Origin: a bacterium
GTDB lineage: Bacteria > Vulcanimicrobiota > JABDET01
NCBI GenBank assembly: GCA_021800275.1
Contig: JAJYZB010000013.1
Span: 516 to 64,515, forward strand
Direction of reading: 5' to 3'
DNA: 64,000 nt
Part shown: positions 155 through 14,433 of the stretch, one piece after another
How positions within the stretch are numbered: the stretch's first letter is position 1
Layout of the letters: each line of letters opens with the position of its first letter
Position numbers and translations under genes: made by a program
The notes under the pieces: generated by a model
The model's database searches: none
Seen by the model: only the letters and a program-made list of their open reading frames with translations
What the model was told of the DNA's origin: nothing

Positions 155-1405
155 TTAATTAGACTTTTTAGAGTTTTTAGTTTTGGAAACAAGGCGCAGG
201 GCGATAGATTGAGGAAGACTCGCGTATTGGGCAGTGATTTGCGGTGGGAGATTTTTCTCGGCTTCAGGAGATACCTCCGGTTCAACCAGATCTGTTACAA
301 TGAAACCACATTTTTGGAATTCGGCGAAATAATCTCCTAATGTGCGGTGAAAAAAGAGCAGTTTATGCTCATAACTAGTGGGTAGAAACCAGAAAGGTTC
401 TCGACTGAAATAGTATCCTATGATCATGGATCCCCATTCCTCTTTTCTGGGGGCATCTACAGGGACCTGATGCCATCTTGTTCCAGAACCAGAAAAACAG
501 GGATGAGTAAACACAGTTACAATTCTGCCATCTGGCGCTAAAATACGCGCAAACTCTTGTAAGGCTCCTCTTATATCCTGGCAGTACATAAATACATTGT
601 TGCATACAATGGCATCCATGCTTTTGTCTTTTAAGAAGGGCATCCTGCTGATGGAGTCATGGATATATTGGATGCCTGCTGGCTCTGCTTTTTCTCGAAA
701 CTCTGCTTGCTCAAAAAGCTGCTTGGAATTCTCTACCCCGAATACTTTAGCTCCTTTTTGGGCTAACATTCGGGAGAGATATCCTTGTCCACAGCCTGCA
801 TCCAAAATAGTCTGCCCCCTCACTTCTCCAAGAAGGCGAAATAAAATCGGGTCAGTAAAATATCTTCTGGCAAAATCTCCTTGGTCTCCACAGATTTCTC
901 CCCATGTTTTTGCATTTTCATTCCAAATTTTTTCAACTATTTTGTCAGAAACTTTATTTTTTTCTACCAAGAAATTTTTTGGGAATGGCTGCTGCAGATA
1001 AGTTTCTTTTGATAAAAAGGAGGAGGGGATTTCTGTTTTATCGCTGTACTCCGCATAATCAATCCCTGGATGCCACAGGCCGCAGTAAGGGCATTGATAG
1101 TCCCAATAATATTTCCACCCCCAAAACTCGCAATTTTTTCGAACGGTGGATAAAGCGCATTTTTTGCAGAAGGGAACTTTTTCTTTAGGGCAAAAAGCTA
1201 AATCTTGAAAATGAAAGGGCTTGCCGCAGTGATCACATAAAAATCTCCAGTGGCGGGAACAGCGTGGAGCTTCACTCCCTAGATCAAAATCAGCAGGCAG
1301 ATCCAGATAATTCGGATTGTGATTTTTAATGAGAGAGCAGTACCAACATTTCAAGCAGGAATAAAAGTTCTGTGAAGAGAAGAACGATTCCTCTGTTATG
1401 CTCAA
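155..1405 (-). CDS. Cys/His-rich (Zn-finger-like) N-terminal domain fused to class I SAM-dependent methyltransferase
   Basis: SAM motif ILDAGCGQG and downstream LQEFARILAPDGR. N-terminal ~110 aa has 12 Cys (CWYC, CSRH, CDHC, CKKC, CPYC..H). The true start may be the TTG at 1354 (MKCWYC). Confidence 0.8.
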   Translation of the reverse strand: MSITEESFFSSQNFYSCLKCWYCSLIKNHNPNYLDLPADFDLGSEAPRCSRHWRFLCDHCGKPFHFQDLAFCPKEKVPFCKKCALSTVRKNCEFWGWKYYWDYQCPYCGLWHPGIDYAEYSDKTEIPSSFLSKETYLQQPFPKNFLVEKNKVSDKIVEKIWNENAKTWGEICGDQGDFARRYFTDPILFRLLGEVRGQTILDAGCGQGYLSRMLAQKGAKVFGVENSKQLFEQAEFREKAEPAGIQYIHDSISRMPFLKDKSMDAIVCNNVFMYCQDIRGALQEFARILAPDGRIVTVFTHPCFSGSGTRWHQVPVDAPRKEEWGSMIIGYYFSREPFWFLPTSYEHKLLFFHRTLGDYFAEFQKCGFIVTDLVEPEVSPEAEKNLPPQITAQYASLPQSIALRLVSKTKNSKKSN

Positions 1406-4253
1406 AGACTCACCTGATCAGAATATTGAAGCTCTGCGTGAAGAACTCCGTCTTCTCCTGAAAGAAAAAGCCATACTTTATGCTGATAATGAGCAGCCGA
1501 TCCGGCTTCGTGACGGGAAATTATCTGCCTGGATGTTTTACAGTTGGACTGTCTCTTTGACCTCCAGGGGAATTCAATTAGCAGCTCTTTGTTTATTGGA
1601 CAAATTGAGAGGATTTCGAGCTCCACAAATTGCGACGTTTGGCTATACAGGGATGCCTCTTCTCAGCGCCATCGTTCTTTTAGGAGAGGGAAGATATACA
1701 GGCATTTCGATTAGGGATGAGAGAAAAATCTATGGTTCCTGCAGACAAATTGAAGGTCCAGTGGACAAAAGAAAATCAGTTGTTTTAGTTGATGATTCTC
1801 TCAGCTCAGGCACTTCCATGATTAAGGGAGTTAAAGCTCTTGAAGAGGAAGGATTTGAGGTTGAGGGAGGAATATGCCTGGTTCATTTTCCCTGGAGAGG
1901 AGGAATGGAAAGAATGCAGGGGCTGGGATACCGAGTTGAGACCCTGTTTGATATATGGAAAGATCTGGAGATGCCTATTCCTGTTTATATTCCTGGATAC
2001 AAAAGAGCAGTCTCAGAAAAAGAAAAATGGTTAGATTTAAGGGTTGAGGATGGACTCCATCCCGCTCATGCAGCCCGCAGAGCCGCTGAAATTTATCTTT
2101 CTCAAAAAATGATCCCTCATCCTCCTCACAGGCTTGACCAGGAATATGATGCCAGAGGCGGCACTTTTATCAGCTTTCGTTATCGTGAAACGGATCACAG
2201 ATTGGTTAGAGATGGGTTCTGGCATTTCAATCCCGCAGATGCAGATCCTTGTAGAGATGTTATTTTAGCCACCATTAAAACAATTCATGTTTCCCGCGGA
2301 ACTCTTACTCTGGAAGAGCTTAAGAAATTGAAGATAGGCGTTACTTTTTTCAGCCCCCTGGAAAAGATTAGTCCCGGAAAATTAGATTTTTCTAGATACG
2401 GGATCGTGGCCCGCAGTCAGGCTTATGAAACTAAATTAGGGGGGGCTCTCCCTAATACAGAGGTTTATACCAATGAAGTGGAACAGTACCGTCATGCTCG
2501 AGTCAATAATGCGAAAATTTCCCCTTTCGAACCTCATGATCTTTTCCGACACGATCTGACCAAATGTGTAGAACCAGGGGAATACTGGCTGCCTTATGGA
2601 TTCCCGGAGAACAAATTGAATCAGTGGCCTCAAGATCAGACCATAGGTCAAATTCTCACCAGGCGCGCTCAGGAATATTTGTATTCTGCAGCAGGAAAAC
2701 CTCTGGCAGGGGAACCGATTCCTGAAAATCTTATTTCAGACCCTGTTTTTGCGGTTTCAGTGACCCTATTTCATAAAGGGATTATAGGCTGCGGGGTTAC
2801 CTGGGGGGATACCCTTGATGCTTGTATTGGCAAAGCGGCAAAGTATGCGTATCAAGATAAAAGATTTGCTCAGAAAAGAAAAGGGATCGCAGTGGAAGAG
2901 ATCAGTTTGTCAGTCTCGATTCTCCATGATAGAGAATGGTTAGGCGAGGTTTCAGAACAGAAAGCCGCGCGAAAAATGAGGAGAGGGTTGGATTCTCTTT
3001 CAGTTCAAAAAGGAAATTTAAAAGGTTTTTTTCTGCCGTATGTTCCTGTTTATTATAACTGGACAAAAGAACAGGTGGTCAAACAATTGATGAAAAAAGC
3101 GGGGATTGCTCAAGGGCCCTGTGTTTGGTCAACCTATAAAACAGAAAGCTGGCTGAGAAGAGGGAATCGAGTTTGGAAACTGTTGAATGGCTTCCCTGAT
3201 CGCTCTGGAGAAGGTTTCACCAGAGAAAATCTTCGAGAGCAAATTTTTCTATTAGGGAATTACATCAATCTCCACTCAATGGCAAGCGGATTTCCGACTT
3301 ATCTCAATTTGCCTGTTCAGGGTTTCATCAAAAAAAAGGGAACATCCGCGAGAATTCTTCATGCTTTAGAGGTCTTAGAGATCGCGGGCAGGATGATGCA
3401 GGAACCTTCCTGGCGGAAAACCGCTGTAAATGGGCTTTTATCTTGTCTTCAGTATCTTAAAGTTGAAAAGGGGGAAGCCAGATTATCTCTCCCTGGCCAG
3501 CCTGCTGCTCCTATGGCTGACTGCGTCCTTTTGACTGCTCTAGCAAATTCGGAAGATTCTCAACTGCATCAGGGTTATTTTCAAAATTTAGTAGTCAGGA
3601 TTAAAAACTTTTTTCAAGATGATGGAAGAATTTCTTATGCTCCAAAAGCAAGAGGATTTGAAACCGACCATGATTTTTTTACAGGATCAGCAATTTTGGC
3701 TCTGGCATCCTCAGTCAAAGCGACAGGAGAAATTGGCGACCTGAAAGGATTGAAAACTCAATTTGATTGGTTTAAACGCCGATTTCGAGCTCTTCATCCT
3801 TGGGGGATGGTGGGATGGCATCCTCAGGGATGGGGTGCGGTTTATTCGATTCTTAAAGAACCACAGTATGCCGATTTTGTTTTTGAAATAGCAGATTGGG
3901 CATTGGACTGGCAGCAGGAAAAAAGCGGTGCTTTTTTAATTGAGCTGCATCCTTATGGACCAAGTTTTCATACTCTTTTTATCGCAGAGGGAATAGCAGC
4001 TGCCTGGAGAGTGGCGCAGTTGGTTGGGGACAGATCCAGGCAGTCTAAATATGAAGCTTCATGTCAAAGCGCCATGCGTTTTTTAAGCCAGTTGATGATC
4101 TATCCGCAGGATACCTTCTGCATGCCTCAGCCGCATCTGGCAGTTGGTGGGGTAAGAGGGTGTCTTTCAACCTCTGAGGTTAGAATTGATTATGTGAGTC
4201 ATTCTCTTCTAGCGGCTGTTAAGTGTTTTGAGTTAACGTCTGGGTTGCTCTGA
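1398..4253 (+). CDS. Multidomain protein: orotate-PRTase-like domain + two AMMECR1-like domains + C-terminal alpha/alpha-toroid-like domain
   Basis: PRPP-binding loop VVLVDDSLSSGTSM and PyrE-like RDERKIYG. AMMECR1-like segments GGTFISF..LEELKKLKIGVTFF..YGIV..GGALPN and VSVTL..IGC..ISLSVSIL..RGLDSL..GFFLPYVP..W..EQ..QLMKKAG. Helical Trp-rich C-terminus ending GGVRG..EVRIDYVSH. Confidence 0.75.
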   Translation: MLKDSPDQNIEALREELRLLLKEKAILYADNEQPIRLRDGKLSAWMFYSWTVSLTSRGIQLAALCLLDKLRGFRAPQIATFGYTGMPLLSAIVLLGEGRYTGISIRDERKIYGSCRQIEGPVDKRKSVVLVDDSLSSGTSMIKGVKALEEEGFEVEGGICLVHFPWRGGMERMQGLGYRVETLFDIWKDLEMPIPVYIPGYKRAVSEKEKWLDLRVEDGLHPAHAARRAAEIYLSQKMIPHPPHRLDQEYDARGGTFISFRYRETDHRLVRDGFWHFNPADADPCRDVILATIKTIHVSRGTLTLEELKKLKIGVTFFSPLEKISPGKLDFSRYGIVARSQAYETKLGGALPNTEVYTNEVEQYRHARVNNAKISPFEPHDLFRHDLTKCVEPGEYWLPYGFPENKLNQWPQDQTIGQILTRRAQEYLYSAAGKPLAGEPIPENLISDPVFAVSVTLFHKGIIGCGVTWGDTLDACIGKAAKYAYQDKRFAQKRKGIAVEEISLSVSILHDREWLGEVSEQKAARKMRRGLDSLSVQKGNLKGFFLPYVPVYYNWTKEQVVKQLMKKAGIAQGPCVWSTYKTESWLRRGNRVWKLLNGFPDRSGEGFTRENLREQIFLLGNYINLHSMASGFPTYLNLPVQGFIKKKGTSARILHALEVLEIAGRMMQEPSWRKTAVNGLLSCLQYLKVEKGEARLSLPGQPAAPMADCVLLTALANSEDSQLHQGYFQNLVVRIKNFFQDDGRISYAPKARGFETDHDFFTGSAILALASSVKATGEIGDLKGLKTQFDWFKRRFRALHPWGMVGWHPQGWGAVYSILKEPQYADFVFEIADWALDWQQEKSGAFLIELHPYGPSFHTLFIAEGIAAAWRVAQLVGDRSRQSKYEASCQSAMRFLSQLMIYPQDTFCMPQPHLAVGGVRGCLSTSEVRIDYVSHSLLAAVKCFELTSGLL

Positions 4254-5015
4254 CTTATTTGTGCAAATTGGAGAACAGATCAGAACTGGATTTATGTTTG
4301 CTTTCAACTCCTTGATCTGGGGGCAGATTTTTTCTTTTTGGATCTCGCCAATGCGCTGCACAGGCATGATGCCTATTAAACTATTGGTTGCGAAAAATCC
4401 ATCGGCTGCCAGCGCTTCCTCAAGTGTTATCTCTCTTTCTTCCACAGGTATTCCCAATTGACTTGAATATTGAATTACTTTTGATCTTGCGATTCCTGGA
4501 AGGATCTTTCCATTTGCTGGAGGAGTGATGAGTTTTCTATGCGCAAAGATGAAAAAATTAGCTCTTGTGGTTTCTAGAATCTTCCCATCACGGGACACCA
4601 TTAAGGCATCATGAAAATTATTTTGAACAGCTTTTTCCCACAATTCTTCATAATGCTTACGGTTCGTGGTTTTGTAAGCTGCCAGGGGTGCAGGCTCAAC
4701 CACTGAAAGGGTCAGCTTCCATTCTCGCGGAAGTGATTTCGCTTCAAGAATTTGAATGAAAAATTCAGAATCAGGACAATAAGTTAGCCTGATTTTTTTC
4801 CTTCCTAATCCAGAAATTCCATTTTGGATGACTTTTATTATCTCGGAAGGATTAACGTCAATAGGGTAATTTAATTCTCTGCAGGAATTTTTTAGTCTGG
4901 TCCAGTGTTCTTCAAACAGAGCTGGAACTCCATTCACTGCAGAGAATGTTTCAAAAATTCCTTTCCCGTCAGGAAAGTCATCAGATGGCGGTAGATGTAT
5001 TTTTAAAGAGTTCAA
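4233..5015 (-). CDS. pabC: Aminotransferase class IV / 4-amino-4-deoxychorismate lyase
   Basis: GKGIFETF, EEHWTRL, YKTTNR (PLP Lys), ETTRANFF, ILPGIAR motifs; follows pabB. Start moved to the TTG at 5015 (ORF track extends to 5090). Confidence 0.8.
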   Translation of the reverse strand: MNSLKIHLPPSDDFPDGKGIFETFSAVNGVPALFEEHWTRLKNSCRELNYPIDVNPSEIIKVIQNGISGLGRKKIRLTYCPDSEFFIQILEAKSLPREWKLTLSVVEPAPLAAYKTTNRKHYEELWEKAVQNNFHDALMVSRDGKILETTRANFFIFAHRKLITPPANGKILPGIARSKVIQYSSQLGIPVEEREITLEEALAADGFFATNSLIGIMPVQRIGEIQKEKICPQIKELKANINPVLICSPICTNKSEQPRR

Positions 5016-6411
5016 AGAACGCTTTTCCTTTATCCAGAATTTCTTGATATTCCCCTTCAGCAGTAGAATCTGCCACAATGCCTCCTCCAACCGAAACGTG
5101 AGCCACTCTATCTTGAATGACTGCGGTGCGAATCGGCAGATTGAACATGAAATCTCCTGAAAACCCGATCCAGCCTAATGCGCCTGTATAAACCCCTCGA
5201 ACAACAGGTTCAATTTCAGCAATAATGCTCATGGCTTTCTTTTTAGGGGCACCGGTGATGGAACCTCCTGGGAAAACTCCTCGTAGAATTTCTCTTAATC
5301 CTGTTTTTGGATTTAATTTTCCTGAAACAGTTGAAACCAGATGGAATACGCTGCCACAAGTTTCAACCCGTGTTAAATCTTTGACTTGGATACTTCCTGT
5401 TTCACATACTCTTCCCAGATCATTTCTTTCCAGATCCACAATCATGAGGTGTTCAGCGCGATCTTTTTCAGATTGAAGCAGCTCATTCATGACAGTCGCT
5501 TCTTCTTCAGAATGAATTGGTTTTAGCTTTGTTCCTTTAATTGGGCAGGTTTCAATGAGTTTTCCCTTTTTTTTCAGAAAAAGTTCAGGGGATGCGCTTA
5601 AAATGAAATTTCTCCCTGTATTTAAACAGGCAGATAAAGCAGTTGGATGGGATGTCCTTAAGGTTGAATAAGCGTTCCATGGGTCTCCATTGAAAGGAAA
5701 AGAAAATCTTTGGGATAAATTCGCCTGGTAGATGTTTCCGCGCTTAATATGATCCATGATTTTATTAAAAGCCTGCGCGTATTCCCCCTGTGTAAAAGAA
5801 GTTGTGAAATAAGAATGTTCAACGTGTTTGCTCTTTTTGAATAATTGATTTTCCGACTCAACCTGTTGTTTAATTTTTGAGCGATTCTCTGGAAGTTTTC
5901 CTTTAGTCAGATGAGGAAGATCGAGAAAAGCGTGGTTGTTCTCAGGGATAGAGAATTTCAGGGAAAGTTTGGATTGGTGATCATAGATTGAGATTTTGTC
6001 GTGGAAAGCAAACCAGACGTCAGAAATCAATAGATCGTCCTCAGGCAGACAGGACAGGTTTTGCAAAGGGTATCCTAACTCATAACTCAAGAAGCCAAAT
6101 GCTCCCGGGGTAAAAAATTGATTTTCATCTAAAAATTCAGAATACCTGGTGCTGCACTGCAGAAGCAGATTTTCTAACACTTCCAGGGGTTCTCCTTGAA
6201 AAAAAGCAGCACCCTCCGGCTGGATAATTTTAATCAGGCTTCCTTTTGCTTCAAAAATTAAAAATGGGTCATGAGCAAGTACACTGTACTGCCCGTAGGT
6301 CCCGCTGAAGAAATTAGAGTCTAAAAAAGCAAAACCTGGATTTTGGGCTTGAGAGGAGCCGGAAATAATCCAATCTTCAGCGGACTGTTTTTTCCAGGAT
6401 TTTGCAGGCAT
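4981..6411 (-). CDS. pabB: Aminodeoxychorismate synthase component I (chorismate-binding, TrpE/PabB family)
   Basis: YQANLSQRF, SPELFL, PIKGT, KDRAEHLMIVDLERNDLGRV, FPGGSITGAPK; adjacent to pabC. Confidence 0.9.
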   Translation of the reverse strand: MPAKSWKKQSAEDWIISGSSQAQNPGFAFLDSNFFSGTYGQYSVLAHDPFLIFEAKGSLIKIIQPEGAAFFQGEPLEVLENLLLQCSTRYSEFLDENQFFTPGAFGFLSYELGYPLQNLSCLPEDDLLISDVWFAFHDKISIYDHQSKLSLKFSIPENNHAFLDLPHLTKGKLPENRSKIKQQVESENQLFKKSKHVEHSYFTTSFTQGEYAQAFNKIMDHIKRGNIYQANLSQRFSFPFNGDPWNAYSTLRTSHPTALSACLNTGRNFILSASPELFLKKKGKLIETCPIKGTKLKPIHSEEEATVMNELLQSEKDRAEHLMIVDLERNDLGRVCETGSIQVKDLTRVETCGSVFHLVSTVSGKLNPKTGLREILRGVFPGGSITGAPKKKAMSIIAEIEPVVRGVYTGALGWIGFSGDFMFNLPIRTAVIQDRVAHVSVGGGIVADSTAEGEYQEILDKGKAFFELFKNTSTAI

Positions 6412-7447
6412 CGATCATGGTTTTTGAATTTGTCGGTTGGCACCAGGTAAAAGCGTGCATTCCAGGTCTAAAAGTGTGGCAGCGTTCACAGTATGGGACT
6501 TCAGAAGAATTTTTGTAAGGATAATCCTGTCCTTTAACTCTTCCTAACAGGAAGTCCATAATCGTAGCTTGACTAGCCCATACCACATGGTGGGGATTGG
6601 TGTCTTCGATAGCATAAATGGCGTGCGCAGAAAAGTTTCTTCCTGGATGAAGCGGATCAGCAATACCCCATCCCCCTGTTTGTTTTTCCTGTGCCAGCCA
6701 TGATTGGCCCAGCACTCTTCCCTTTGGTGCTGTGATCATGCTTGGCGGAAAGGCAACGAAAAATTCCAGCAGATTTCCCATGGTTGCAAAGTCAACATGC
6801 AGAATTTTCGCATTGGAATGGAGTTTTCCTAGTAAAAACGCGGGCTTCTTTAAAAGAGAAATCGCCTGCCTGCGGGAGGTAATAGGTTTTTGTAAAGGAA
6901 TCATGGCTGCCTGAAGTTGAGTATTTATTTTTTTTATCATTTGAAATCTGGGATTCCACAAGACTTTAAATTTTCCAGCAAAAACTGCATAAATTCCTTT
7001 CTCATGCATTCTCTCTTTTAATAAATTCGTGCTGGATTTGAGGTGGTTTAGGTCGTCACTCAAGCTCTCCACACCTTCATTGATTTGGTTGAGTTCATAT
7101 TGAAACGCCTTCCTTGTAAAAGTATTCCCTTTTCTAGTCAGCACAAGGATTTTGGATGCCAGAATTCGAGTTCTATTTTGAAAGTCCTTGTGATAAGCAG
7201 CAGCCGCCTCAGAAGCTTCAAAAACAGGCTTTAGAACGTTTTGTGCTGTGGGTCTTTTTGATTTTTGAGAGTATTTTGTTCCGAAAAAGTTTGCCATTTG
7301 TTGGGCTGGTAAAAGAGGAGTTAACTGTTCCGCATCAATGATTTTAAACACGAGAAAAGCCGCTGCAGTCAGAAGAGCCGCGATAAATAATGTTCTTTTA
7401 AAACAATTTTTAATCATTATGATCCACATCATATTAAAAAAATTCAA
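6377..7447 (-). CDS. Hypothetical exported/membrane-anchored protein with coiled-coil region and a single CxxCH motif
   Basis: N-terminal hydrophobic segment LFIAALLTAAAFLVFKII, helical middle region, YCERCHTF near the C-terminus. Start uncertain (several Met in the first 11 codons). Confidence 0.6.
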   Translation of the reverse strand: MNFFNMMWIIMIKNCFKRTLFIAALLTAAAFLVFKIIDAEQLTPLLPAQQMANFFGTKYSQKSKRPTAQNVLKPVFEASEAAAAYHKDFQNRTRILASKILVLTRKGNTFTRKAFQYELNQINEGVESLSDDLNHLKSSTNLLKERMHEKGIYAVFAGKFKVLWNPRFQMIKKINTQLQAAMIPLQKPITSRRQAISLLKKPAFLLGKLHSNAKILHVDFATMGNLLEFFVAFPPSMITAPKGRVLGQSWLAQEKQTGGWGIADPLHPGRNFSAHAIYAIEDTNPHHVVWASQATIMDFLLGRVKGQDYPYKNSSEVPYCERCHTFRPGMHAFTWCQPTNSKTMIDACKILEKTVR

Positions 7448-7534
7448 AAAAAAGCTTTAGAATCCTCCCACTGAAACTTAAAAAAACACAGGATTACCCT
7501 TAAGATCGTGGAAATTAAATCAAGGGAGAATAGG

Positions 7535-9769
7535 ATGAATCTTGATTTAGCATTGAAAAAATACGAAAGAATGGTTGTGTTTAATCCTAAAGATGGAGAT
7601 TCCTATTTTGCGCTTGCCCTTCTTTATGATGCTAAACAGGATGGGATGCAAGCTGCAAAAACATTTCAAAGCGCCCTTGAACATTCTCCTAAAAGTTCCG
7701 CAGTTCGATTTTTTGATGGGTCTTTTTTGGCAAGATTTTCCAAAAAACTTGATCTGGCGGTTCATCAATGGGAAAAAGCCATTGAACTGGAACCTTCTAT
7801 TTTTGCTGATTTAGAGAAACTGATTCCTGAAGATGTCTCTTACCCTTTAAAAGAAAAACTCGCCGCCACTGTTGAGGTATTTGAGAAAGAAGCCGCGGCG
7901 TCTCCTGGCAGCGTTTTTCCTTTGTCCTGTCAGGGATTTGCGTATGGGCTTTGCAAAAGTCTCAAAGAGGGGATTTCTTTTTTTGATTCACACATGAAAG
8001 CATTGGGCAGCAACTCTGCTTCTCTTTATCTTTATGGGCTTCTTCTTTTCATGGCAGAAAGTTGGGACCCTGCCGCACGGACTTTTGAAAAAGTGCTTGA
8101 AAATGATAAAACGAAAATAGGCGCTTATTATTTTCTTTCTCTCTGCTATTTAAAAGCTGATAAATTATCCCAGGCTGTTCGCTGTCTGGAAAAGCTGAAG
8201 GACACAGATCCCTCTTATGAAAAAGGAATTTATCTGTTGGCAGAAGTTTATTTGAAACTGGGGCGGTATGAGCAGGCTGTTAAATTTTTACAGCAAATTA
8301 TTCAATTCAATCCCCAGGATTCAAAAGCCCATTTTATGCTGGGGCAGTGTTATCAGGAATTATATCGTCTGGATGAAGCGGAAAAGGCGTATAAACAATC
8401 TGTTCAGCTCCAGCCCGAGTTTAAGGAACCTTATTTCAATCTTGGGATGGTTTTGACCCGATTGGGAAAATGGAATGAGGCGATTGGAAGCTTGAAAGAA
8501 GCGGCTAAACTGAGTTCTAAAGATCCCTCTGTTTTTTATCACCTAGGGCTCACCTATAATCAGACTGGTTCTTTTGAAGAAGCCATTCATTCTTTTCAAG
8601 AGGCAATTTCGATTGAACCGGTTAAAACTCCGGTTGACTGTTATTTAGGGCTTGCTCTTGCTTATGAAAAGATTGATAATTTGATTTCTGCGATTGACAC
8701 TTACAAGAAAGTGTTAGAAAAAACAGGAGGTTCTTCACAGCAGGAATCTTATATACGGTATCATTTGTCTCTCTGTTATCAGAGATTAGGAGAATACTCC
8801 CTTGCCATGGAGCAGCTGGAAGAAGTTCTCAAATTGAATCCTCAAGATGGTTATGCTGCTTATAATCTTGGATCTGTTTATGCTCATTTAGCTCTTATGG
8901 GAAAAGCTCAGGATGCTTATTCCAAGGCATGTGAATTAAACCCTAATGATCTGTATGCGCATTTTAATTTAGGAGGTATTTTAGCTCGAGATGGTTTTGT
9001 GGCAGAAGCAAACGAGCAGTTTAAAAAAGCCCTTGAATTGACACCTAAAAATGATGCTGAATTAGCTCTTTATTCAACTCTTCTAGGTCAGATGGCGGTC
9101 AATATTGAAATAGCAAAATTAAATGCCAGATTGAAAGAGTCTTATTTTGAAACGGTAAAAGCCATTATTGGATGCCTGGATGCGAAAGATAAATATACAG
9201 CAGGTCATACCAATCGAGTTTCTGTGATTGCGGCAGAAGTGGGAAAAGTTTTAAACTTGTCAAAAGATGAAACCGATTCTTTAGCTATTGCCGCTGTCCT
9301 GCATGATATTGGGAAAGTTGGAGTTCCAGATGCCATTCTTTTGAAACAGGGAAAACTAACTGCTGAAGAGTTTCAAGTCATGAAAGAGCATCCTGTTTCA
9401 GGAGCGAAAATCTTGGAACAGGTCAGTTTTCCATGGACCCAGGTCGTCAATTATGTGAAACATCATCATGAGAGGTATGATGGTTCAGGATATCCTGATG
9501 GATTAAAAGGGGAAGAGATCCCGATCGGAGCAAGAATTTTATCGGTTTCTGATTTTTTTGATGCTCTGGCAACAGAGAGGCCTTATAAAAAAGCGTATCC
9601 TATTCCTATTGTGCTTGAGCAGGCTGAAATGCAGAAAGGTAAATCTTTTGATCCCGATGTTATCGCCGCATTAAAAAAAGCGGCTCCTCGGCTGGAAGCC
9701 CTTTATAAACCTGCAGAAGCTTTGACAGAACTACCGACCTGGGAATCTTCCCTTGTTGACAGCGCATGA
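7535..9769 (+). CDS. TPR-repeat protein with C-terminal HD-GYP cyclic-dinucleotide phosphodiesterase domain
   Basis: Long TPR array (e.g. AHFMLGQCY, PYFNLGMVL, AAYNLGSVY), then YTAGHTNRV, LHDIGK, HHHERYDGSGYPDGLKGEEIP, DFFDAL..RPYK. ATG 7535 follows AAGGGAG. Confidence 0.9.
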   Translation: MNLDLALKKYERMVVFNPKDGDSYFALALLYDAKQDGMQAAKTFQSALEHSPKSSAVRFFDGSFLARFSKKLDLAVHQWEKAIELEPSIFADLEKLIPEDVSYPLKEKLAATVEVFEKEAAASPGSVFPLSCQGFAYGLCKSLKEGISFFDSHMKALGSNSASLYLYGLLLFMAESWDPAARTFEKVLENDKTKIGAYYFLSLCYLKADKLSQAVRCLEKLKDTDPSYEKGIYLLAEVYLKLGRYEQAVKFLQQIIQFNPQDSKAHFMLGQCYQELYRLDEAEKAYKQSVQLQPEFKEPYFNLGMVLTRLGKWNEAIGSLKEAAKLSSKDPSVFYHLGLTYNQTGSFEEAIHSFQEAISIEPVKTPVDCYLGLALAYEKIDNLISAIDTYKKVLEKTGGSSQQESYIRYHLSLCYQRLGEYSLAMEQLEEVLKLNPQDGYAAYNLGSVYAHLALMGKAQDAYSKACELNPNDLYAHFNLGGILARDGFVAEANEQFKKALELTPKNDAELALYSTLLGQMAVNIEIAKLNARLKESYFETVKAIIGCLDAKDKYTAGHTNRVSVIAAEVGKVLNLSKDETDSLAIAAVLHDIGKVGVPDAILLKQGKLTAEEFQVMKEHPVSGAKILEQVSFPWTQVVNYVKHHHERYDGSGYPDGLKGEEIPIGARILSVSDFFDALATERPYKKAYPIPIVLEQAEMQKGKSFDPDVIAALKKAAPRLEALYKPAEALTELPTWESSLVDSA

Positions 9770-12716: not shown

Positions 12717-12851
12717 GGATTGACACGCCTTTCTACTTGCCAGAAGAAGGCAGACATTCTGTGGTCTGCTAATCTGGGCCGTCATAGGAGTTAAATCGCT
12801 GAATTTGCAGATTCGAAGGGTCAAGTGACTCGTGTGGCGAAACTGGAAATC

Positions 12852-13727
12852 ATGAAGATTGGCGCATTTGATTCTGGAGTTGGTGGTTTTACAGTTCTCA
12901 AGCCGCTTTTAAAACAAATGCCGAATCTATCGGTTGTTTATCTGGCTGACACAGCTCATGTCCCTTACAGCGGAAAAACACCGGAGGAATTGGAGATTAT
13001 TATTCGGAAGATTTTAAAGTTTTTTTTAGAAAAAAAGGTAGAGGCTGTTATTTTTGCCTGCAACACTTCATCAGCCCTTGTTCTGCCAAAAGTTCGCCCG
13101 TACTCTTTTGTCCCTTTTTATGGGGTTGTGGGTCCAGGGATTAAATCTGCTTTAAAAGCCACGCAAGGAAAGGGGATCGGAGCTGCAGCCAATGAAGTTA
13201 CCGCAAAAAGCGGGATTTTTAAAAAAATGATTCATGAAAAAGATCCCGCTATTCCTGTTTTTGAGCAGAGCTGTCCCGAACTTGTTTCTTTGGTGGAAAA
13301 AGGGGATCTTTCTTCTTCAAGAACAGTTTCTGCTGTAAGAGAATACATGAAGCCTATTCGAGGGAAGATTGATGCTTTGATTTTAGGGTGCACTCATTTT
13401 CCCTTCTTGAAGAAACAGTTTGAAGATTCTCTGCCTGACTGCGCAGTCATTGATCCAGCCAATTCTTTGGCAGAAGAGTTCGCTGAAGATTTTAAAAATA
13501 AAAAAGTTTATCATGGAATTGACTCTCGTCAAAAGTTGAATAAAGGGAATATTGTTTTTAATGAAGCCGTAAAAAATCATGAACTTTTTGTGACAAAACA
13601 ATCTCCTCATATAGAGGAATGGGCTGAAAAAGTCCTGGGTTGGAAGGTGAAGGCAGAACTGCTGGATCTTAAATTTATTCGCCCCTGGACTCCTGAGGAG
13701 GTCGTTTCTTGTGAAACCCCGAGTTGA
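12852..13727 (+). CDS. murI: Glutamate racemase
   Basis: [25 protein letters not shown] (both catalytic Cys present). Confidence 0.95.
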
Positions 13728-14433
13728 TGGAAGACTTCCTGATCAGGTCAGATCTGTTCGAATAACAGGAAACTATTTGAAACATCCTGAAGGTTCTTTT
13801 CTTATTGAAATGGGGGATACTAAAGTCATTTGCGCTGCCAGTGTCGAAGAAAAGGTTCCTCAGTGGATGAAAAGTCAAAATGTTCCAGGGGGATGGATTA
13901 CAGCAGAATATGGCATGCTTCCTGGTTCAACTCATACCAGAACACCTCGAGAATCAAACAGGACAAGCGGAAGAACTATGGAGATTCAACGTTTGATTGG
14001 GCGTTCGATTCGGTCAGTCGTGGATCTTTCACTACTTGGCGAGAGAACAATCTGGCTGGACTGTGACGTCATCCAGGCAGATGGCGGAACCCGGACAGCC
14101 GCGATTACAGGAGCTTTTGCGGCTTTGAGTCAAGCATTGAATAAACTCGCTGCCAAAGGACTTGTTTCTTCTTCTCCTATTAAAGATTCTGTTGCAGCAA
14201 TCAGTGTTGGAATGGTAAAAGGGGATATTCTTTTGGATTTAAATTATCAGGAAGATTCAAAAGCAGATGTGGATTTAAATTTAGTGATGACAGGTTCCGG
14301 GCAGTTTGTAGAAATTCAGGCGACAGGGGAGAGAAAAATTTTTTCGCATCAGGATTTGAAGCGGTTCCTTGATTTAGGGGAAAAAGGAATCAGAGAACTG
14401 ATTGAAATACAGAAAAAAGCGCTAACTGGCTGA
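13711..14433 (+). CDS. rph: Ribonuclease PH
   Basis: [50 protein letters not shown]. Confidence 0.97.

Follow-up and report, generated by a model that had tools for sequence, protein, structure and literature searches.

The window, as the whole 64,000-nucleotide stretch analysed is called here, carries a 951-aa open reading frame at 1398..4253 (+), which is present in the list of open reading frames and starts with ATG. The original prediction had given this same frame, and both motifs that it quoted lie in the translation, VDDSLSSGTS at residues 131–140 and RIDYVSH at residues 929–935. Four domains follow one another along the fusion protein, all encoded on the + strand: an OPRT-like type I phosphoribosyltransferase (PRTase) domain (residues 1–204; 1398..2009), a divergent AMMECR1-like unit 1 (residues 205–408; 2010..2621), an AMMECR1 unit 2 (residues 409–599; 2622..3194), and an (alpha/alpha)6 barrel (residues 600–951; 3195..4250).

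At 155..1405 (−), divergent to the fusion gene, lies the gene for a 416-aa protein formed by a Cys-rich N-terminal part and a class I SAM methyltransferase; its full-length relatives, at about 37% identity, adjoin the fusion gene in two other loci (L031 and L032). Behind it, as the next gene on the methyltransferase's strand, an X-P-E repeat gene occupies positions 1–453 (−) of contig C17. This gene is opposite in strand to the fusion, lies just left of the window and is broken by the contig end; it probably continues onto contig C30. The pabB and pabC genes also adjoin the fusion gene in convergent orientation, and homologues of them occur in none of the 55 fusion loci compared.

The fusion protein belongs to a real, rare bacterial family with a fixed architecture. 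A sequence search returned at least 219 homologues at E ≤ 0.001, mostly full-length, and the best 120 of these at least 219 showed 89–99% query coverage and 41–61% identity. Among about 185,000 species genomes, 55, drawn from several phyla, carry the gene, and it is missing from all 40 relatives of the source genome that were compared; most members come from MAGs carrying the labels Acidobacteriota, Actinomycetota and Pseudomonadota. The original prediction had proposed collecting homologues and had named an ordinary PyrE joined on by an assembly error as one way in which it might fail. This candidate explanation was rejected because full-length homologues are plentiful and 55 species genomes carry the gene. 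One homologue of 1370 aa (P0153) has an additional APH-type kinase domain. A literature search found no paper on this PRTase-AMMECR1-barrel fusion.

The PRTase domain was assigned from matches to the NCBIfam pyrE model TIGR00336 (residues 37–174, E 4.1e-12) and to human OPRT 2wns (residues 76–192, E 9.6e-10), the latter reaching E 4.2e-15 with the family profile. Its PRPP loop, VVLVDDSLSSGTS (residues 128–140; 1779–1817, +, from the translation), has the hydrophobic strand and acidic pair followed by S-S-G-T-S, in keeping with the S/T-x-G-x-T/S pattern of type I PRTases and with the intact domain originally proposed. Among the aligned homologues, D132 and G138 are kept in 41 of 41 and D133 in 40 of 41, and R106 and K110 of the flexible loop never vary (41/41 each); such conservation of D132, D133, R106 and K110 indicates that the PRTase residues are under selection. 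In OPRT, the flexible-loop residues matching R106 and K110 act in catalysis. The Pfam Pribosyltran model PF00156 scores the window's protein at 21.6 bits, under its cut-off of 26.3, and a precomputed PF00156 match exists for some homologues. Assignment as a PyrE equivalog was considered and rejected, since TIGR00336 gives 46.2 bits against a cut-off of 106.8 and the genome has a separate OPRT-like gene, on contig C28, which scores higher (62.4 bits). The domain shares with PyrE/OPRT the type I fold as judged by sequence, the PRPP loop and the R106/K110 pair, but differs in falling far under the pyrE cut-off, in carrying about 750 additional residues and in having Phe164 (40/41) aligned at the Arg of the human OPRT 'DR', an Arg that presumably binds orotate.

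The two divergent AMMECR1 units that had been placed at residues 220–600 were borne out by matches to that family. AMMECR1 is conserved from archaea to humans, where it is a disease gene. Unit 2 scores 66.8 bits against PF01871 (cut-off 25), and its model (pLDDT 95.4) superimposes on PH0010 1vaj with Z 19.6 and an rmsd of 2.7 over 184 residues, followed by MM0484 1zq7 (Z 15.6) and ST0229 1wsc (Z 13.5). Unit 1 is better conserved than any other part of the fusion protein and has the motifs RDGFWHF and GGALPNT; it stands at the Pfam cut-off: PF01871 gives 24.5 bits in a longer piece and 25.5 bits when the unit is scanned alone. It matches PF01871 at E ≤ 0.01 in 34 of 42 family members, and a unit-1-only profile matches 1vaj in register (E 0.0021). 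In structural alignment of the joint two-unit model, all AMMECR1 chains aligned to unit 2, and the two units gave no significant match to each other (hhalign E 0.28).

The Cys of the RGChG motif, which together with DxRa characterizes AMMECR1 proteins, was proposed to be catalytic by Balaji and Aravind (PMC2034487). As judged from alignment, both units of the fusion lack this predicted catalytic cysteine. In unit 1, R271 is invariant (41/41) and an equally invariant Gly273 (41/41) occupies the Cys place, with the DxRa counterpart absent from the alignment to 1vaj. In unit 2, the same alignment puts I462 at the Cys place, in a column composed of L20, V11, I6, F2, P1 and A1, and the Arg place holds R in only 16 of 41 sequences; the DxRF motif is kept (D487 35/41, R489 39/41, F490 34/41). 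The fusion therefore resembles the family in the fold and DxRF of unit 2 and in the register of unit 1, and is unlike it in having tandem units, neither keeping the Cys. A literature search found no established reaction for AMMECR1. Membership in the AmmeMemoRadiSam system (TIGR04335/04336/04337) was tried and rejected: TIGR04335 gives 56.2 against a cut-off of 99, and there is no Memo or TIGR04337 gene near the fusion. The absence of Memo and radical-SAM partners from the window had been remarked at the outset; the genome's set sits on contig C28, with a canonical AMMECR1 (PF01871, 162.8 bits), a TIGR04337 radical SAM (264.4 bits) and a weak Memo-like TIGR04336 match of 22.3 bits, under cut-off.

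The C-terminal region, first described as a helical toroid, is modelled as such: residues 596–951 form an (alpha/alpha)6 barrel with pLDDT 95.7. Its best structural match is the GH76 enzyme 6shm (Z 26.5, rmsd 2.9 over 301 residues), followed by 4z4j (Z 26.1) and 5zig (Z 25.9), the cellobiose 2-epimerase entries, and it matches no Pfam family. The overall fold is shared with GH76 mannanases, AGE-type epimerases and isomerases (cellobiose 2-epimerase, YihS) and type II terpene cyclases, with Z from 26.5 to about 20 over 280–325 residues. In contrast to this likeness, which is one of overall fold, barrel identity is 8–16% and the matches form a flat series that favours no single family. Conserved barrel residues include R652, R795, W802, W807, Q839, E864, D905, GGVR 917–920, R929, D931 and H935. 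The barrel family also appears in AMMECR1+barrel proteins of 500–660 aa, and in the Atlas it falls in a cluster in which 85% of members have an Asp/Asn beta-hydroxylase domain. In other peptide-linked proteins, AMMECR1 units and the barrel likewise appear together as one module.

Comparison of neighbourhoods, as the original prediction had proposed, revealed a recurrent partner of the fusion. In 38 of the 55 loci, two uniform criteria detected an acidic low-complexity gene near the fusion gene and on the same strand, comprising 20 loci with tandem X-Pro-Glu repeats (type B) and 18 with a protein of about 150 aa, "ELPEGGEGGGGG" (type A); these partner classes are also named X-P-E and ELPEGG repeat proteins. 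Type A partners, found with a purpose-built HMM, lie directly upstream on the same strand in 18/55 loci. In a rapidly built tree (42 rows), the enzymes accompanying them cluster together in a single clade (SH-aLRT 100) spanning three phyla, whose partners carry 'ELPEGGEGGGGG...EIxELP' motifs. This HMM found nothing credible in the 2.46-Mb source genome. Type B was defined as an ORF with at least 6 P[ED] in 60 aa and at least 25% acidic residues. Such ORFs lie within 2.6 kb of the fusion gene on its strand in 20/55 loci, and farther out in the same loci the definition is satisfied by 1 of 9,061 ORFs. In the source genome it picks out 3 of 25,842 ORFs, of which two are probably opposite ends of the same repeat gene, beginning about 1.4 kb from the start of the fusion gene. 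Both criteria failed in 17 loci; seven of these have looser acidic repeats by eye, and the other ten, some of which end at a contig edge, have no acidic repeat gene by eye.

The partners share features beyond composition. In the X-Pro-Glu/Asp units, X is variable and the Pro and acidic residue are constant, and type B partners of distant loci have a common N-terminal [KR]V..PF motif. The two partners at locus L011 gave NHLP-leader matches below cut-off (TIGR04509 20.8, cut-off 34; TIGR03793 20.3, cut-off 50.9); NHLP, IniB_NTERM and most leader-like matches likewise fall under curated cut-offs. Other partners gave only low-complexity or below-cut-off leader matches, and the window's repeat partner gave no match to the leader-family profiles.

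Peptide-maturation enzymes recur around the fusion as well. TIGR03975, a B12-dependent 'RiPP maturation radical SAM C-methyltransferase', adjoins it in 8/55 loci from several phyla, with scores of 643.7 and 520.1 bits against a cut-off of 281.85. Genes for 2OG-Fe(II) oxygenases are near it in 5+2 loci, LanB-N-like genes in three and an MvdD-type pre-ATP-grasp gene in one; YcaO was absent from the scanned neighbours. At locus L013, the fusion is closely followed on its downstream side by a PRTase-PQQ propeller gene. These loci resemble proteusin/NHLP-type RiPP clusters in having TIGR03975, 2OG oxygenases and LanB-N-like genes in some cases, and partners in which a repetitive core comes after an N-terminal region. 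However, they differ in that partner leader matches stay below cut-off, the core consists of extended, acidic X-P-E arrays instead of a short peptide, and the window locus has no B12 radical SAM. A literature search on proteusin/NHLP-type clusters found no PRTase, AMMECR1 or barrel enzyme described there. Beside the window's fusion there is no TIGR03975, LanB-N-like, 2OG oxygenase or pre-ATP-grasp gene, and the source genome has no orthologues of the cluster-type radical SAM, 2OG oxygenase or LanB-N genes; its three TIGR03975 genes show 29–32% identity to the fusion-linked ones and sit on other contigs.

The label of candidate new enzyme and the four-domain architecture of the original prediction are upheld by the domain matches and homologues. 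Its further idea, a self-contained pathway acting on a base or aromatic amine, finds no support in loci where acidic repeat genes accompany the fusion in 38/55 cases and peptide-maturation enzymes recur. Linkage to acidic repeat genes suggests instead an undescribed protein modification. With a probability somewhat short of even, the fusion is a cytoplasmic four-domain enzyme acting on, or with, the genetically linked acidic repeat protein; it may mature such proteins, possibly with PRPP as the donor. The repeat protein would be the substrate, and the barrel and the AMMECR1 units, which have the RAGNYA fold, would hold it. The PRTase might, at lower confidence, transfer a 5-phosphoribosyl group from PRPP onto the repeats, most likely to the constant Glu/Asp carboxylate, given that X is the variable position and Pro and the acidic residue are fixed. 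Where a locus has them, the neighbouring methyltransferases, B12 radical SAM C-methyltransferases and 2OG oxygenases would contribute additional modifications. In its boldest form, a hitherto unknown post-translational modification by PRPP-dependent phosphoribosylation of Glu/Asp carboxylates or hydroxylated Pro in ribosomally made X-Pro-Glu proteins, with the degenerate AMMECR1 units and barrel as a peptide-handling module, the proposal is improbable. Type I PRTases use nitrogen nucleophiles, and we know of no precedent for a carboxylate or peptide acceptor. The near-neutral charge of the domains (family medians +1, −2, +2 and −4) counts against the repeat-protein reading, as the enzyme as a whole has no basic face that would suit an acidic partner. 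The 17 loci that fail both partner criteria, the opposite strand of the window's repeat gene, the sub-cut-off leader matches and the source genome's lack of cluster-type maturation genes also speak against it.

Other explanations fit parts of these data. The PRTase-like domain could be a PyrR-type sensor of PRPP or nucleotides, leaving the AMMECR1-barrel module or neighbouring enzymes to modify the repeat protein. The module does occur without a PRTase in related proteins, the Pribosyltran model remains under its cut-off, and the nearest Atlas models include PRTase-like domains fused to PilZ and PQQ beta-propellers. However, R106 and K110 are invariant alongside the PRPP loop, and the loss of the predicted catalytic Cys from both AMMECR1 units leaves no obvious other catalytic centre, making a sensor rather unlikely. 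A self-contained small-molecule enzyme, as first proposed, is also a doubtful choice. In that case, the PRTase would ribosylate a free base or aromatic amine, and the nucleotide would be remodelled by the AMMECR1 units together with the barrel, which might work as, for example, a sugar isomerase, epimerase or hydrolase. The repeat genes would then have no connection with it or belong to the output of one gene cluster. Intact PRPP-binding residues in an OPRT-like domain, the sugar-acting nearest folds of the barrel, the kinase domain of P0153 and the adjoining pabB and pabC are all compatible with it. Against it stand the convergent orientation of these two genes and their lack of counterparts at other fusion loci, the low pyrE score, Phe164, and the fact that only repeat proteins and peptide-maturation enzymes recur beside the fusion.

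Least probable, and very unlikely, is a conflict or toxin-antidote pair in which a nucleotide-directed effector is countered by the polyanionic repeat protein as inhibitor or nucleic-acid mimic. A very patchy distribution, a two-gene cassette co-inherited across phyla and an AbiEii-like gene adjoining locus L017 would suit such a pair. PADLOC, however, yields only a PRPP-loop match (E 0.051), the neighbours are of biosynthetic rather than defence type, and the N-terminal motifs followed by long repeats make the partners look like precursors, not compact inhibitors.

In this family, a degenerate AMMECR1 pair is fused with a PRPP-using domain and with a barrel resembling those of sugar enzymes, and gene linkage across phyla ties it to very distinctive acidic, proline-periodic repeat proteins. 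A vague idea of a nucleotide-modifying enzyme thereby becomes a two-protein question involving the enzyme, the repeat protein and PRPP. If the repeat proteins are modified, the family would enlarge peptide natural-product and protein-modification chemistry by a new class of enzyme, perhaps also by a novel glycosyl-type modification, and would inform studies of the AMMECR1-barrel families at large. If phosphoribosylation also proved true, acidic-peptide handling would provide the first biochemical context for the orphan AMMECR1 domain.

The sequence at window positions 1398-4253 (+) is a single ORF of 951 aa with an ATG start, upstream of which just 11 further codons are open (open frame of 962 aa). 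Its translation carries both motifs read from it in the original prediction, the PRPP loop VDDSLSSGTS (residues 131-140) and RIDYVSH (residues 929-935), and its G+C content (0.42-0.45) is close to that of its flanks (0.38-0.43). Searches with the whole protein returned 219 proteins at E ≤ 0.001, and the best 120 align over 89-99% of its length with 41-61% identity. A survey of 185,579 species, with one genome per species, found 77 stretches matching the search patterns, and 55 of these encode a relative of the fusion protein. These 55 loci belong to Acidobacteriota, Actinomycetota, Pseudomonadota, Chloroflexota, Thermodesulfobacteriota, and Eremiobacterota/Vulcanimicrobiota. With full-length homologues so plentiful, an assembly chimera, the objection foreseen in the original prediction, was rejected. 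Among shorter proteins matching query residues 1-410, a search for stand-alone or split N-terminal halves gave 44 matches, nearly all of them fragments or frameshifted pieces of the fusion family, with ordinary PRTases as the two weakest. The gene is absent, at E ≤ 1e-20, from 40 relatives of the window's genome (one sharing its genus, one its family, and 38 its phylum). The fusion gene is accessory, rare, and scattered in its distribution. Databases name its products [quoted passage not shown] or "hypothetical protein", and neither the fusion nor the acidic repeat proteins encoded beside it are described in the literature searched.

The N-terminal domain (residues about 1-204) is related to orotate phosphoribosyltransferases (OPRT). 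The NCBIfam pyrE model TIGR00336 matches residues 37-174 with E 4.1e-12 and 46.2 bits, below its cut-off of 106.8, and Pfam Pribosyltran gives 21.6 bits, under its cut-off of 26.3. Human OPRT (2wns) is matched with E 9.6e-10 from the single protein and 4.2e-15 from the family profile. R106, K110, and D132 are invariant in 41 aligned homologues and D133 is present in 40, which places the PRPP loop and flexible loop under selection. Because the genome holds another OPRT-like gene, on contig C28 (62.4 bits), the fusion protein is not the housekeeping PyrE. The nearest Atlas models of the PRTase part include PRTase-PQQ-propeller proteins. At locus L013, a 535-aa protein encoded directly downstream of the fusion gene (12808-14412, +) combines a second OPRT-like PRTase with a PQQ-type beta-propeller.

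The central portion contains the two divergent AMMECR1-like units that had been predicted, one clear and one borderline. Unit 2 (residues about 409-599) is clearly an AMMECR1 member, scoring 66.8 bits on the Pfam model; in a predicted structure of residues 205-605 (pLDDT 95.4), it superimposes on PH0010 (1vaj) with Z 19.6 and an rmsd of 2.7 over 184 residues, followed by 1zq7 (Z 15.6) and 1wsc (Z 13.5). Unit 1 (residues about 205-408) is a borderline member by sequence. It reaches 24.5 bits on the same Pfam model within a longer piece and 25.5 bits alone, 34 of 42 fusion-family members match that model here at E ≤ 0.01, and a profile made from unit 1 alone matches 1vaj in register (E 0.0021). 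The two units have a common order of secondary-structure elements in the model, and their comparison by hhalign gave no significant match (E 0.28). All AMMECR1 chains aligned to unit 2 in this joint model, so unit 1 is assigned mainly by sequence. The window's own genome also holds a canonical AmmeMemoRadiSam-like set on C28 (70164-71103 and 78643-79656; L061, L071, L072), with an AMMECR1 protein of 162.8 bits, an adjoining weak Memo-like match of 22.3 bits (cut-off 26), and a TIGR04337 radical SAM protein of 264.4 bits about 8 kb off. Such Memo-AMMECR1 systems are reportedly treated by Burroughs et al. in 2019.

According to Balaji and Aravind (PMC2034487), the AMMECR1 family is defined by an RGChG motif, whose Cys is proposed to be catalytic, and a DxRa motif. 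In contrast to these canonical proteins, the place of the Cys is occupied in unit 1 by an invariant Gly273, inside the motif RDGFWHF, and in unit 2 by Leu, Val, or Ile; lacking the motif Cys, neither unit is a canonical AMMECR1 catalyst. Unit 2 retains DxRF, with D487 in 35, R489 in 39, and F490 in 34 of 41 homologues, and unit 1 is the best conserved region of the whole fusion protein.

The helical toroid of about 340 aa predicted at the C-terminus is borne out by modelling. Residues 596-951 have no Pfam match, and their predicted structure (pLDDT 95.7, pTM 0.95) obtained 98 PDB matches at E ≤ 0.001 with Foldseek, led by GH76 mannanases, AGE-type isomerases/epimerases, and type II terpene cyclases. 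An exhaustive VIA search placed GH76 6shm first (Z 26.5), ahead of cellobiose 2-epimerases (Z 26.1 and 25.9), followed by a flat list down to about Z 20, with identities of 8-16% throughout. As modelled, the domain is an (alpha/alpha)6 barrel without an assignable family. At E ≤ 0.001, a profile search with the barrel retrieved 2,363 cluster representatives, whose top 150 are mostly the fusion family or its fragments. Others among the 150 are proteins of 500-660 aa that join one AMMECR1 domain to the barrel, making this pair a recurring module. One further barrel protein, P0153 (1370 aa), has an added C-terminal APH-type kinase domain, and the barrel is also listed in an Atlas cluster in which 85% of the members carry an Asp/Asn beta-hydroxylase domain.

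The main new result concerns the acidic repeat genes that lie beside the fusion gene. At many loci, a same-strand ORF without a Pfam match ends 50-250 nt ahead of it. Eleven of these upstream ORFs are detectably related to one another, each with two copies of the motif P-(N/Q)-E-L-P-E-G-G-E-G-G-G-G-G ... E-I-x-E-(L/F)-P, each copy followed by a helix. An HMM built from nine of these type A proteins, and then rebuilt, detected one upstream of the fusion gene in 18 of the 55 loci; in the window's own genome it matched coiled coils only (E ≥ 0.002). Other loci carry type B partners instead, which consist of tandem X-Pro-Glu/Asp arrays such as PETPEIPE..., PERPEFPELPE..., SEVPDH..., ERPERPDIIE..., PEVGPEIGPE..., and VEVAPE.... 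A uniform rule (at least six P[ED] dipeptides per 60-aa window, with D+E of at least 25%) identified type B ORFs within 2.6 kb of the fusion gene in 20 of the 55 loci, always on its strand. The same rule selected one of 9,061 six-frame ORFs in flanks farther out and three of 25,842 ORFs in the window's own genome. The two types together account for 38 of the 55 loci; by eye, further acidic repeats were recognized in seven (L012, L030, L031, L032, L037, L038, and L045), and none in the remaining ten, some of which are truncated where their contig stops.

An N-terminal [KR]V..PF motif recurs among type B partners from distant loci. The two partners at L011 match NHLP-leader models below cut-off (TIGR04509, 20.8 bits against 34; TIGR03793, 20.3 bits against 50.9), and the N-terminus of the L008 partner scores 28 bits on Pfam LigA (cut-off 25.3). 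The type B repeats themselves match just the proline-periodic region of a streptococcal surface protein model, a low-complexity match. At L007, a Pfam "Collagen triple helix repeat" match at 8762-9751 (-) is the antisense of a P-E-x repeat gene on the + strand; automatic annotation of such loci may therefore pick the wrong strand.

Two of the three type B matches in the window's own genome lie at C17:1-471 (-) and C30:149695-150189 (-). The former is encoded on the strand of the methyltransferase gene that adjoins the fusion gene. It begins 216 nt downstream of the methyltransferase and is truncated by the start of C17, which places it just left of the window, whose first position is C17:516. 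The latter starts at the extreme end of C30 and terminates in a stop codon. Comparison of the terminal 300 nt of C30 with the opening 300 nt of C17 revealed 64 shared 31-mers that are absent from all other contigs, and the strands fit the order C30 then C17, suggesting that the two pieces are one repeat gene split by the assembly. This gene would be followed on C30 by a second methyltransferase gene (250 aa), and it is divergent from the fusion gene, whereas the repeat genes of the 55 loci are co-directional with it. Near its 3' part on C30 are also encoded a 334-aa Cys-rich protein with a coiled-coil tail (L069:454-1458, +) and a 298-aa protein with repeats that appear Sel1-like by eye (L069:1459-2355, -).

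A maximum-likelihood tree of 42 rows, built by a quick rather than a careful search, omits 14 of 56 enzymes whose loci lack an ORF reaching 850 aa. Within it, every one of the 14 enzymes paired with a type A protein falls in a single clade (SH-aLRT 100) whose members come from Actinomycetota, Acidobacteriota, and Pseudomonadota; three with Asp/Ser/Thr-rich repeat partners form a separate clade; and the type B enzymes, the window's among them, are paraphyletic. Enzyme clades thus follow partner type and not taxonomy, as expected of a cassette moving and evolving together, although the tree is supporting evidence and not proof, because kinship alone also produces clusters. In keeping with mobility, an ISKra4-family transposase gene (L008:19307-20602, +; 283.9 bits) closes the row of cluster genes at L008.

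When 991 ORFs taken from the window and the 55 loci were compared with one another by blastp, no family of neighbouring genes extended beyond seven loci, and clustering of small ORFs yielded mostly antisense or alternate-frame artefacts. The reading that the fusion gene stands alone was nevertheless rejected, since the partners are low-complexity, fast-evolving, and often masked by longer antisense ORFs. A gene for a B12-binding radical SAM protein of about 640 aa adjoins the fusion gene in 8 of the 55 loci: directly downstream on the same strand in L048, L050, L051, and L055, in the same operon-like row in L008 and L009, convergent in L016, and divergent in L023. For two of these neighbours, the match to TIGR03975 ("RiPP maturation radical SAM C-methyltransferase", cut-off 281.85) amounts to 643.7 and 520.1 bits. 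PF13640-type 2OG-Fe(II) oxygenases (5 + 2 loci), LanB-N-like proteins (three loci), TP_methylase-like proteins (four to five loci), and an MvdD-type pre-ATP-grasp protein (L031) are also found beside it, and L031 and L032 encode full-length relatives of the window's methyltransferase at about 37% identity. Orthologues of the cluster-type genes (radical SAM, 2OG oxygenase, LanB-N, and TP-methylase) were sought in the window's own genome, and the search turned up just TIGR03975 paralogues on other contigs. Three score over the cut-off (C31:27962-29809, C11:78590-80422, and C31:1-1416; L064-L066), and the paralogues are 29-32% identical to the radical SAM proteins beside the fusion gene elsewhere.

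Within the window, the methyltransferase (416 aa; 155-1405, -) is divergent from the fusion gene. Its listed TTG start (1405, -) and the fusion-gene ATG (1398, +) overlap by 8 nt on opposite strands, so either each gene contains the other's promoter or the methyltransferase start is placed at the wrong site. Convergent with the fusion gene are a PabC-like class IV aminotransferase (4233-5090, -), below NCBIfam cut-offs, and a pabB/trpE-like chorismate-binding enzyme (4981-6411, -), which scores 328.6 bits on pabB TIGR00553 (cut-off 328.4); the two ORFs overlap by about 110 nt. Beyond them lie an ORF of 356 aa (6377-7447, -) that Pfam, NCBIfam, and PADLOC all leave unmatched, a gene for a 753-aa protein (7508-9769, +) that combines numerous TPR repeats with an HD-GYP-type HD_5 domain at its C-terminus, and then genes for a Germane-domain protein and an Amidase_3 protein.

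Across the partners, X is variable, whereas Pro and an acidic residue return at constant intervals. PMC2034487 describes the AMMECR1 (RAGNYA) fold as one that binds nucleic acids, nucleotides, or peptides. Together with the kept PRPP site and the recurring AMMECR1-barrel module, these features lead us to propose the repeat protein as the substrate of the fusion enzyme. On this view, holding the repeat protein would fall to the AMMECR1 units and the barrel, and transfer of phosphoribose from PRPP onto it would fall to the PRTase, with Glu/Asp carboxylates as the most plausible acceptors. We know of no precedent for a type I PRTase with a carboxylate acceptor. A complex prediction for enzyme residues 25-951 and repeat-protein residues 14-86, scoring 0.01 and 0.02 against a mark of 0.32, is neutral on binding, and a basic enzyme surface for the acidic partner was rejected, the domain net charges being near neutral.

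Three other readings are less likely. The PRTase-like domain may act as a sensor. Another alternative is a free-base acceptor, as in the original prediction, yet Phe164 (40 of 41 homologues) sits opposite the Arg of the OPRT "DR" motif, which we take to be orotate-binding. The window's pabB/pabC-like pair probably serves ordinary pABA/folate synthesis, and none of the 55 loci has a homologue of either gene. Enzyme and repeat protein might also form a toxin-antidote pair, a reading that would accommodate their joint inheritance; a PADLOC search of the fusion protein found nothing beyond a PRPP-loop match (E 0.051), and the neighbours at several loci are of peptide-maturation type. The original prediction is partly right, in its architecture and novelty; its base or aromatic-amine substrate and its self-contained pathway are not supported. 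The reading we find most likely is that the fusion protein is a candidate enzyme, not described before, that matures acidic repeat proteins.
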